Positions 8,243 through 9,349 of a stretch of DNA of 64,000 nucleotides are shown piece after piece (within the stretch, counting starts at the first letter, position 1; every line of letters starts with the position of its first letter). The notes beneath the pieces were generated by a model. The model made no database searches. It was not told the origin of the DNA and was given only the letters and a program-made list of their open reading frames with translations. The stretch is from a virus, in IMG/VR virus record IMGVR_UViG_3300025012_000047, positions 35,171 through 99,170 of that record; one strand, 5' to 3'. Made by a program: the position numbers and the translations under genes.

Positions 8243-9349
8243 ATGATAACTAAGGAACTATTAAACAAAAATAGAGTATTAACCATGTCAAACAATCGTA
8301 AATGTGATTATCTAATTGTGGATGTATCTTCCACCACAGGTAATAATAGAGACATTACAACTATGATGGCAATTAATACACAAGGAAATAGGAAAGATAT
8401 TCTAGTCATCAAAACATTTATAGGAAAATCTTTTGCAGAACTTGTAGATGAAGCATATTGGTTGTGTTGTGAGTTCGGTATACAGATTATTTTAGTAGAT
8501 AAATCAGGTATGGGATTAGGATTTATTGAACAATTTGAGATGAATATAAATCCAAATAATGTTTCTGTAAGAGGATTAGATGGAAGAAAAATATATCAAA
8601 ATATAAATATTAATGAAATAAAGAAAGATTTACAATATGGTAATTTGAGATTCTTACAAACACCAGAATTAGCTATGGTTAGTTATATGAAACCATTTTT
8701 AGGATTATCAAATATTATGGATTCACATAGAGAAACTAGTGAATTAATTAATGAGATAAATAATCTTGAGATCAAAATGAGATTAGATAAAATTGTTTTA
8801 AGTGGTTTAGATGAAACTATTGGTAAAGGAAGATTGAATTGTTTATTAGCGTTTTATTCTTATCCAATGAATATGGCATCAGAATTAGAAGATGACAGTA
8901 AGGGGAATAAAGAAAGATATGATGTTGCTAAAAGGAATAATAAATATGAAATAATTCATGGTATTTTTTATAAGTATATGTTTAAGTGTATTGAAAATAA
9001 GCATATTAAGGTAATATTTTATCATAATGGTCAGCACAAAATACAGAAGTTTCAAGATATAACTGAAGAAGATCAATTTAGAAGTTTATTTCTAAAAGAT
9101 ATAAAAAGTATAAGTAAATCAAAAGATCGTTTTGAGATTATTTTTTATAATGGAAGTATAATACAATTTATGTACGCTAGTGATAATGCAAGGGGATATA
9201 GAAGTCATTATGCTGTTGTGGATACTGAAATTGATAGAGAAACATTTGATAATGTAATTAGATTTAAAACTATGTTGTTTGATGTGGAAAAAGAAAAAAG
9301 TTATGGGAGAATAGAGAATATTTATAATATTGATTATATAGAGATGTAG
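8243..9349 (+). CDS. Terminase-large-subunit paralogue with swapped domain order, probably inactive
   Basis: The N-terminal part aligns by eye with the TerL nuclease domain (YLIVDVS, ILVDKSGMG, LINEINNLE). The C-terminal part aligns with a TerL ATPase segment (FYNGSII..DNARGYRSHYAVVD). AAGGAG RBS before ATG 8243. Confidence 0.65.
   Translation: MITKELLNKNRVLTMSNNRKCDYLIVDVSSTTGNNRDITTMMAINTQGNRKDILVIKTFIGKSFAELVDEAYWLCCEFGIQIILVDKSGMGLGFIEQFEMNINPNNVSVRGLDGRKIYQNININEIKKDLQYGNLRFLQTPELAMVSYMKPFLGLSNIMDSHRETSELINEINNLEIKMRLDKIVLSGLDETIGKGRLNCLLAFYSYPMNMASELEDDSKGNKERYDVAKRNNKYEIIHGIFYKYMFKCIENKHIKVIFYHNGQHKIQKFQDITEEDQFRSLFLKDIKSISKSKDRFEIIFYNGSIIQFMYASDNARGYRSHYAVVDTEIDRETFDNVIRFKTMLFDVEKEKSYGRIENIYNIDYIEM

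Follow-up and report, generated by a model that had tools for sequence, protein, structure and literature searches.

Among the enzymes of tailed phages, the terminase is the best conserved; it is also a main target of bacterial pattern-recognition immunity (Avs1-3, Upx). Elsewhere, in the clamp loader, the inactive AAA+ subunit delta-prime still supplies an arginine finger. Of the sensors that recognize terminases, EcAvs2 is reported to read the ATP-loaded ATPase domain, and SeAvs3 active-site residues together with bound ATP (PMC13601566). Our literature search for permuted (domain-reversed) or inactive terminase derivatives found no paper. Here, we describe an open reading frame (ORF) whose product appears to be both. 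It lies at positions 8243..9349 (+ strand) of a 64-kb stretch of DNA (“the window”, 64,000 nucleotides), which forms the right-hand part of the 99-kb uncultured virus record IMGVR_UViG_3300025012_000047 and has a G+C content of ~27%. The gene encodes a 368-aa derivative of the large terminase subunit (TerL) with the two domains in reverse order. Very probably, it belongs to a self-contained cassette (terminator, two-repeat leader, ribosome-binding site [RBS], gene, terminator) that encodes a reversed, ATP-incompetent, nuclease-incomplete, selected, and mobile TerL derivative.

The ORF protein can be compared directly with a working TerL in the same window (11625..13361, + strand), which is of the YonF type and has all motifs intact (Terminase_6N; phrog_2, E = 3.4e-30). 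BLASTP against this resident TerL aligns ORF residues 13-91 with TerL 325-411 (E = 0.011) and residues 246-360 with TerL 100-219 (E = 0.026), so that the two matches are collinear in reverse. Residue numbers follow the 377-aa form held by databases, which counts from an in-frame ATG at 8216; in this numbering, M10 is the first residue of the actual protein. When the family alignment is compared with 16 TerLs by hhalign, residues 10-224 match TerL 308-558 (probability 97.3%, E = 2.5e-11), and residues 255-367 match TerL 102-217 (probability 97.5%, E = 6.7e-12). A profile built from 48 family members finds both the nuclease part (E = 9.7e-7) and the ATPase part (E = 5.5e-4) of the resident TerL; it matches the TerLs of c-st, SPbetaL4, and LIBA2945 likewise, and nothing else in those genomes. 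In addition, phrog_15503 matches ORF residues 246-342 (E = 5.7e-9), and the same PHROG family matches TerL 39-235. Pfam assigns no family to the ORF at E values up to 1, which leaves it below the gathering thresholds of Terminase_6N and Terminase_6C; the resident TerL passes Terminase_6N with 25.8 bits (cut-off 22). An earlier note, made by reading the sequence alone, had called the protein “domain-swapped”, with an N-terminal part parallel to the TerL nuclease and a TerL ATPase piece after it. Both halves of this description are borne out, and the motif pairs that it listed (YLIVDV/YVIVHDV, ILVDKSGMG/IIIDMRGNG, LINEINNLE/LIQELSNIK, FYNGSII/FRNGSEI, and ARGYRSHYAVVDT/ARSWRFHYLAIDE) fall in register by hhalign.

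The predicted structure agrees with these alignments. The AlphaFold2 (AF2) model of the ORF protein has a mean predicted local distance difference test (pLDDT) score of 81.8. In VIA-align comparisons, residues 7-221 of the model align with T4 gp17 (359-558) at Z = 15.9 (root-mean-square deviation 3.0, 179 residues aligned), with D6E at Z = 15.8 and with Sf6 at Z = 14.8, and the best 14 chains are terminases throughout. Residues 236-376 match packaging ATPase cores, namely T4 gp17 139-286 (Z = 8.7), P74-26 (8.3), and phi29 gp16 (7.7). The structural comparison with TerL, which the earlier note had named as a check, hence gives strong similarity for both parts. Foldseek identifies the nuclease fold with a probability of 1.00, and Foldseek (PDB, BFVD) and the ESM Atlas feature search return terminases only. 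No BFVD entry overlaps both halves in reversed order; the single-domain overlaps are with TerLs only (TMq <=0.46). The sequences of solved structures contain no match to the ORF protein. RuvC/Ydc2-type Holliday junction resolvases score Z = 8-10 compared with 12-16 for terminases; with this deficit and an incomplete four-carboxylate set, we rejected a resolvase of this type as the identity of the protein.

These comparisons divide the gene into three parts. An N-terminal arm (8246..8314, + strand; residues 11-33, ELLNKNRVLTMSNNRKCDYL) is homologous to the inter-domain linker of TerL (TerL 308-330). It is followed by the RNase H-like nuclease domain of TerL, up to residue ~225 (8315..8890, + strand), and then by a long conserved helix and an ATPase core without strand 1 or P-loop (8897..9346, + strand), in which the helix (228-260) aligns with the TerL helix that follows the P-loop. 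This order, nuclease first and ATPase core second, is found in all family members and is the reverse of that in TerL, with its N-terminal ATPase and C-terminal nuclease. The ORF protein is ~21-25% identical to the resident TerL. By its sequence, it is TerL-derived and not a recent duplicate of the resident gene.

Residues that are invariant in TerL are partly kept and partly lost. Across 12 TerLs of five lineages, the invariant set includes R89 and K93 (Walker A), R183, E191 (catalytic Glu), and R318 (linker), as well as D340, D406, G411, E517, N520, D543, and Y550. All 48 members of the family retain R318 (as R20), D406 (D95), E517 (E180), N520 (N183), and Y550 (Y214); G411 is kept as G100 in 46, R183 as R326 in 44, and D340 as D36 in 43 (N in 4, T in 1). 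The pan-TerL NGS motif (312-314), R326-G327, and the Walker B aspartate D336 (47/48) are also kept. On the other hand, there is no Walker A: the hhalign match starts at TerL 102, past 89-RGLGKS-94, leaving TerL R89 and K93 without counterpart. The residue after D336, at the position of the catalytic E191, is T337 in the ORF protein and T (18), S (18), N (7), K (4), or R (1) in the 48 sequences, never E. Similarly, the third nuclease aspartate (TerL D543) is replaced, by G205 here and by S (27), L (8), T (5), G (3), A (2), and others across the family. The earlier note had read all three losses (no Walker A, DE changed to DT, and KRDR changed to KGR with loss of a likely catalytic Asp) from the single ORF, and each of them extends to the family.

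Since strand 1, the P-loop, and the catalytic Glu are missing, the ATPase core cannot bind ATP in the canonical manner, and ATP hydrolysis by the ORF protein is excluded on present knowledge of additional strand, catalytic E (ASCE) ATPases, as far as sequence can tell. For the nuclease domain, canonical two-metal DNA cleavage is unlikely, and this half is likely dead as well. The description “apparently dead” in the earlier note thus stands for the ATPase half; for the nuclease half, death is likely and unproven, with the third Asp gone and D95, E180, and N183, together with H171 and E173, invariant. Indeed, D61, E86, D95, H171, E173, E180, and N183 do not vary in the 48 sequences. Two of these, H171 and E173, are specific to the family and lie on the same predicted helix as E180, with E173 and E180 seven residues apart in the AF2 model.

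The best-conserved stretch of the protein is the N-terminal arm, in which K13, L16, R20, L22, T23, M24, S25, N27, R28, C30, and L33 are invariant in the 48 sequences. Because synonymous codons vary freely in this arm (R28 is encoded by five codons), the constraint acts on the protein and not on the DNA, and we rejected an overlapping DNA element as the source of the conservation. Two candidates for a remnant Walker A were also discarded. The segment at 270-276 (HNGQHKI, with K275 conserved, and GRKGKT in 2/48 members) is placed by hhalign opposite TerL 118-GQGQQA, after strand 2 and away from the P-loop, the GRKGKT string sitting at a non-homologous position aligned with TerL 118-123; and VLTMSNNRKC aligns with the TerL inter-domain linker, its R20 corresponding to TerL R318.

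The gene is equipped with its own expression signals. An RBS, AAGGAG (8231-8236), lies 6 nt ahead of the ATG at 8243. Given this RBS, and given that 8216-8243 is non-coding leader in relatives, translation starts at 8243. A start at the ATG at 8216 was ruled out: the apparent conservation of “MSYHEKEKY” arises from translating the leader and RBS, and a related locus (L004) has a break in the frame. A terminator-like hairpin and T-run at 8127..8155 (+ strand; 13-pair stem, then TTTGTG) closes the preceding transcription unit, and a second terminator-like hairpin follows the gene at 9382..9411 (+ strand). The earlier observation of an intact ORF with its own RBS and terminator therefore stands, with the upstream hairpin added.

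Between the first hairpin and the gene lies an ultra-conserved 54-nt leader (8184..8237, + strand), which consists of repeat 1, a -10-like box, repeat 2, and the RBS. Repeat 1 (GGTAGTGTCTTACCAC, 8186-8201, 16 nt) and repeat 2 (GGTCATGTCCTACCAT, 8212-8227, 16 nt) are direct repeats (pattern GGTNNTGTCYTACCAY, 26-nt period), each carrying GGTA-N6-TACC, and they flank the -10-like TAAAAT (8202-8207). Over 19 loci, mean pairwise identity is 93.7% in the leader, 74.5% in the coding DNA, and 52.9% in the 60 nt further upstream; 21 nt of the leader are invariant, and TTGGGTCATGTCCTACCATGA is invariant in this alignment. We searched the 99-kb record (G000) and a 178-kb relative (G001; 178,304 bases) for further copies of the repeat motif, and each holds it only as the leader pair. 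As such, the leader is single-copy in 277 kb, and we rejected a repeated late-promoter motif. A structured RNA was rejected as well (minimum free energy -13.7 kcal/mol, z = 0.30, no significant fold), and an Rfam search of the window gave no family.

In SPbeta, late transcription uses a single YonO late promoter (PMC5467207). No YonO homologue was found in G000 or G001 with the query used, a partial (C-terminal) YonO homologue of c-st only, and the leader has no visible similarity to the regions upstream of SPbeta yonK or c-st terS. The simplest reading of the leader is an operator pair around a candidate promoter, which would give the gene its own control of dose or timing. Autoregulation by the ORF protein through this putative operator is attractive, because the operator travels with the gene, but it is unproven.

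The reversed protein represents a family. A search of 5.8 billion proteins returned 53 relatives at 44-85% identity, nearly all full-length (360-385 aa) and with neither Pfam domain nor name, and an exhaustive search extended the family to members at 38% and 30% identity. Loci for comparison came from viral (15) and metagenome (50) sequences. The reversed order is intact in ~50 sequence clusters and in more than 40 loci. Pairwise ratios of nonsynonymous to synonymous substitution rates (dN/dS, by the NG86 method) are 0.15-0.58, which are probably overestimates in a genome so A+T-rich; both halves are under purifying selection, the N-terminal half being more constrained than the C-terminal half. 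The earlier note had proposed conservation of the permuted form under purifying selection as a check, and the outcome is positive: the ORF family is not a one-off relic. The sequencing runs that hold ORF DNA are groundwater and sediment metagenomes, and other loci bear bioreactor-type names. A tblastn search of 50,697 phage records found no copy of the family, nor was there one in 185,579 species genomes, and hence no prophage copy. The distant or variant members P0069, P0055, and P0061 had no match among the viral contigs searched. Phage c-st, SPbeta, and LIBA2945, which are closely related and share the packaging module, also lack the gene.

Wherever downstream DNA is present on the contig, the gene order is the ORF, a variable HNH-type endonuclease gene, a YonG-like gene, TerL, and portal, such that the ORF consistently lies 1-3 kb ahead of terS, terL, and portal. 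Its evolution is nevertheless uncoupled from theirs. At least five TerL lineages, with 20-28% identity between them, are found next to the ORFs, which are themselves 55-95% identical, and ORF identity is uncorrelated with that of the neighbors (Spearman rho = 0.14 for TerL and 0.10 for portal). For example, loci L013 and L014 are 95% identical in the ORF and 93% in the portal but 23% in TerL; L005 and L004 are 93% identical in the ORF, 45% in the portal, and 26% in TerL; and the window and L005 are 71% identical in the ORF, 97% in the portal, and 99% in TerL. At the DNA level, high identity between L005 and L004 (93.9%) covers 1,220 bp only, that is, the leader and the ORF. L013 and L014 match at 96.7% identity from the leader across the ORF and the endonuclease gene as far as the first base of terS, and homology returns 35 nt before the TerL stop. 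These DNA comparisons establish that two neighboring units, an ORF cassette and a TerS-TerL cassette, are exchanged separately. Since it stands beside five unrelated TerLs and two portal types, the ORF protein cannot depend on a lineage-specific interface with either. The cassette has the features of a moron-like accessory cassette: its own candidate promoter region, putative terminators, and transfer independent of its neighbors.

Variants in the same genomic slot suggest how the protein is built. In L070 and L071, the slot holds the N-domain joined to an unrelated C-terminus, and the two repeats are kept; in L079 and L080, it holds an unrelated helical N-terminus joined to the C-domain, and the repeats are absent. 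These variants fit a modular protein. That the repeats track the N-domain may be plain linkage, since they abut the 5' end of the gene. Pfam and PHROGs gave no match on the alternative N-termini of variant proteins; the variant P0061 matches phrog_24618. When the two domains are scored separately with hidden Markov models (HMMs), the N-domain HMM scores best on the c-st-type TerL (21-29 bits, others <=17), and the C-domain HMM has its top score on the L010-type TerL (39.7 bits), followed by SPbeta and LIBA2945 (24-26) and with 12-19 only for the c-st type. Because the two halves thus resemble different TerL lineages, the gene is probably chimeric, combining the 3' half of a terminase gene with the 5' part of a different one and derived from tandem terminase genes, as judged from HMM bit scores and not from phylogeny. 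In this scenario, two terminase cassettes would have stood in tandem during an exchange, and the chimeric product would have been trimmed and then recruited to a new use.

What could such a protein do? The reading we favor, with a probability of roughly one in three, is that it is a non-catalytic mimic of the terminase, which works by binding only and does so in packaging or DNA maturation, through generic terminase features. The protein would have shed the parts of TerL that do chemistry while keeping those that make contacts: the DNA face of the nuclease fold (D36, D95, E180, N183), the linker arm, and the ATPase face with R326. R326 corresponds to TerL R183, an Arg that is invariant in TerL and lies ~8 residues ahead of Walker B, at the position proposed for the trans finger in P74-26. 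By analogy with clamp-loader delta-prime, R326 could reach into the ATP site of an adjacent TerL. From there, the ORF protein would cap or nucleate a TerL ring as it assembles on DNA, or restrain this assembly, whichever TerL forms the ring. The leader, which has no second copy in the genome, would be the operator that sets its dose or timing, possibly by autoregulation.

Several points weigh against a binding-only mimic of this kind. The binding partner is postulated only. The position of the arginine finger varies among terminases, with D6E and phi29 using a different loop (PMC5727402), which makes R326 as a trans finger an assumption. A specific interface with TerL or with the portal is hard to square with the lack of any tie to the resident lineage of either, so the target must be a generic TerL feature or DNA. 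The gene is not required for packaging as such, given that c-st, SPbeta, and LIBA2945 do without it, and an insulated unit of promoter, gene, and terminator that is transferred as a cassette is what one expects of accessory (defense or counter-defense) genes rather than of motor parts. Finally, the invariant D95, E180, and N183, together with the family-specific H171 and E173, could mean an active, remodeled nuclease site. We consider it possible, at lower odds than the favored reading, that the protein is a mobile, self-regulated “universal terminase mimic” whose cassette would owe its spread among large phages to the engagement of a terminase-binding partner outside the packaging module, the result being either a blinded host immune sensor of terminase or a capped ATP-site face, conserved in any TerL.

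The other explanations account for parts of the same evidence. The earlier note had suggested a decoy against terminase-sensing defense or a dominant-negative inhibitor of packaging, and its proposal is compatible with an autonomous, exchanged cassette that follows neither the TerL nor the portal lineage beside it and that c-st, SPbeta, and LIBA2945 lack. If the partner were a host sensor of TerL (Avs1-3-like, Upx-like, or other), the protein could be a counter-defense decoy, a terminase-fold mimic that titrates or jams the sensor without activating it. The cassette behaves as such a gene might: it is autonomous and horizontally exchanged, goes with no particular resident TerL or portal, is missing from close relatives, and has its own leader with a putative operator, bracketed by terminator-like hairpins. 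The ORF is also more conserved (55-95%) than the neighboring structural genes, as expected if its target is a host protein, and it retains D36, D95, E180, and N183 though catalysis is probably crippled. SeAvs3 binds the native terminase nuclease domain extensively (PMC13601566), which we count in favor of this explanation. Of the features that sensors read, however, the nuclease site is largely kept and the ATP site is absent; for a decoy of Avs2 or Avs3 in particular, the P-loop is missing, and so is the ATP site that EcAvs2 and SeAvs3 are reported to read (PMC13601566). The literature searched contained no TerL-derived decoy, and the gene heads the late module instead of lying among the early genes. 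Altogether, we regard a decoy as improbable. Ranking below it is a remodeled but active nuclease, in which E173 and H171 replace the lost Asp beside D36, D95, and E180, serving in maturation or debranching or as a site-specific or homing nuclease of the cassette. An intact RNase H/RuvC-type fold in the model, to which Holliday-junction resolvases are weaker matches (Z = 8-10), would be compatible with this, as would the seven residues invariant in the 48 sequences (D95, E86, D61, H171, E173, E180, and N183), with E173 and E180 on one predicted helix; moreover, the cassette-wise spread and fixed slot resemble those of free-standing homing endonuclease genes. Against an active site, 5/48 members have N or T in place of the first catalytic Asp and the third site is taken by variable, non-liganding residues, and the slot variants L079 and L080 do without the nuclease domain altogether. 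Roles outside those considered here come next in our ranking.

An effect on rival phages is more doubtful still. As a dominant-negative subunit, the protein could poison the terminase of superinfecting phages or satellites, consistent with the retention of subunit-interface elements and not of catalytic ones, and the putative operator could hold the gene off while the resident terminase works. Yet the gene coexists with all five TerL lineages of the phage group, so co-infecting relatives would have to be immune or the carrier self-poisoned, and expression in a lysogen is unsupported, given that the 185,579 species genomes contain no prophage copy. We therefore consider this use unlikely. Hardly credible at all is a decaying, functionless recombination relic. 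The chimeric make-up does suggest a start as a by-product of terminase cassette exchange, but a relic is contradicted by the conservation data: ~50 clusters of intact full-length ORFs persist down to 44% identity (30% for outliers) with dN/dS well below 1, motifs are invariant in the protein while codons vary, and the leader is conserved. The binding-only mimic at packaging or DNA maturation remains the reading we prefer.

The surroundings of the gene place it in a known type of module. The packaging and head genes of the window are of the SPbeta / Clostridium phage c-st type. The resident TerL is 72.6% identical to CST168 (YonF) of Clostridium phage c-st. Just ahead of it, a gene for a YonG-like protein (10732..11616, + strand; phrog_3314, E = 8.6e-43) is the presumed terS, its c-st counterpart CST169 being annotated as a YonG homologue; the portal gene (13589-15208) lies downstream of TerL. 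Between the ORF and terS is a free-standing HNH-type endonuclease gene (9525..10739, + strand; phrog_5104 and phrog_681, endonuclease), which in other loci is 28-55% identical or partial. Two more endonuclease genes of the HNH or homing type lie nearby (816-1619 and 5698-6534), making three in 10 kb with that at 9525-10739. A 78-aa ORF at 5368-5604 (with 4723-5274) matches the SbcD-like “DNA repair exonuclease” profile phrog_704 (E = 7.6e-9) over profile positions 162-229 of 390 only and looks like a fragment of an exonuclease gene, the intact form of which adjoins terS, just before it, in Clostridium phage Amboise. Two acidic proteins rich in Cys clusters and without family match (6572-7057 and 7131-7880; e.g., CKCCSCDNDDCDEYNCTCGKPDCC) are syntenic with the ORF in several loci. 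The relative G001, which CheckV rates 100% complete, has no TerL or portal match and terminates 1.8 kb past its ORF. Because the window continues for another 55 kb downstream of the ORF, the true genomes of both phages are probably well over 200 kb.

The same loci show an unusually clean exchange of TerS-TerL as a discrete cassette between nearly identical phage backbones. terS and terL are swapped together (L013:3744-6296 vs L014:3535-6323; also L005/L004 and L009/L010) in backbones that are otherwise 88-97% identical, with the left break at the first base of terS and the right one ~35 nt before the TerL stop. The right border is marked by the conserved C-terminal tail of TerL (13329-13358 in the window; consensus DSDYDFVFSYS), which is kept across all five lineages, with F575 invariant and D572, F573, V574, and S578 at >=90%. 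This tail is probably the portal-docking arm. The C-terminus of the ORF protein (9317-9346; YNIDYIEM, consensus YNIEFIEM) is loosely like it, with Tyr at -8 and an aromatic residue at -4. In L041, the TerL match is in two pieces (6946-7281 and 8572-9579) ~1.3 kb apart, pointing to an insertion in terL (intron, intein, or endonuclease); the match in L063 is likewise in two pieces, here adjoining. Small stand-alone proteins (~110-270 aa) that consist of the same Walker-A-less ATPase core (NGS...ARGxR...D) also occur (G001:C1:2935-3219, - strand; P0081; P0087; P0090), and the one in G001 lies 172 kb from the ORF.

With its folds, invariant non-catalytic residues, and control element kept, its ATP chemistry lost, and five TerL lineages tolerated, the ORF protein is a natural probe of those terminase surfaces that matter beyond catalysis, be it in assembling the ring, in holding DNA, or in being recognized by immunity. 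If the protein is indeed a universal mimic, it would be the first described TerL-derived counter-defense or motor-control protein, born from terminase cassette exchange.

The closest known system is TerL itself, of the T4 gp17 / SPbeta YonF type (Terminase_6N plus RNase H-like nuclease), represented here by the TerL of the window and that of Clostridium phage c-st. Both of its folds are present in the ORF protein, as are R20, D36, D95, G100, E180, N183, Y214, the NGS motif, R326-G327, and the Walker B Asp, and the gene lies in the packaging region. Unlike TerL, the ORF protein is reversed, lacks strand 1, the Walker A loop, the catalytic Glu, the third nuclease Asp, and the part of the ATPase domain past about TerL residue 220, and has 368 residues rather than ~580; it has no Pfam hit and is tied to no single TerL lineage. 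It thus falls short of a working TerL in most of the defining features, while its descent from TerL is clear. Next come phrog_15503 (ATPase part) and phrog_24618 (nuclease part), both of “unknown function”, which are stand-alone, single-domain pieces of TerL, whereas the ORF protein joins both pieces in one chain and in reverse order. The likeness to clamp-loader delta-prime is one of functional analogy and not of homology: in each case, a pseudo-ATPase that no longer binds nucleotide would present a conserved Arg on the face that meets the ATP site of its neighbor, although the ATPase class differs and ring membership of the ORF protein is assumed by analogy only. Specific to the present case are the reversed two-domain build, the unique leader, and the behavior of the whole as a cassette.

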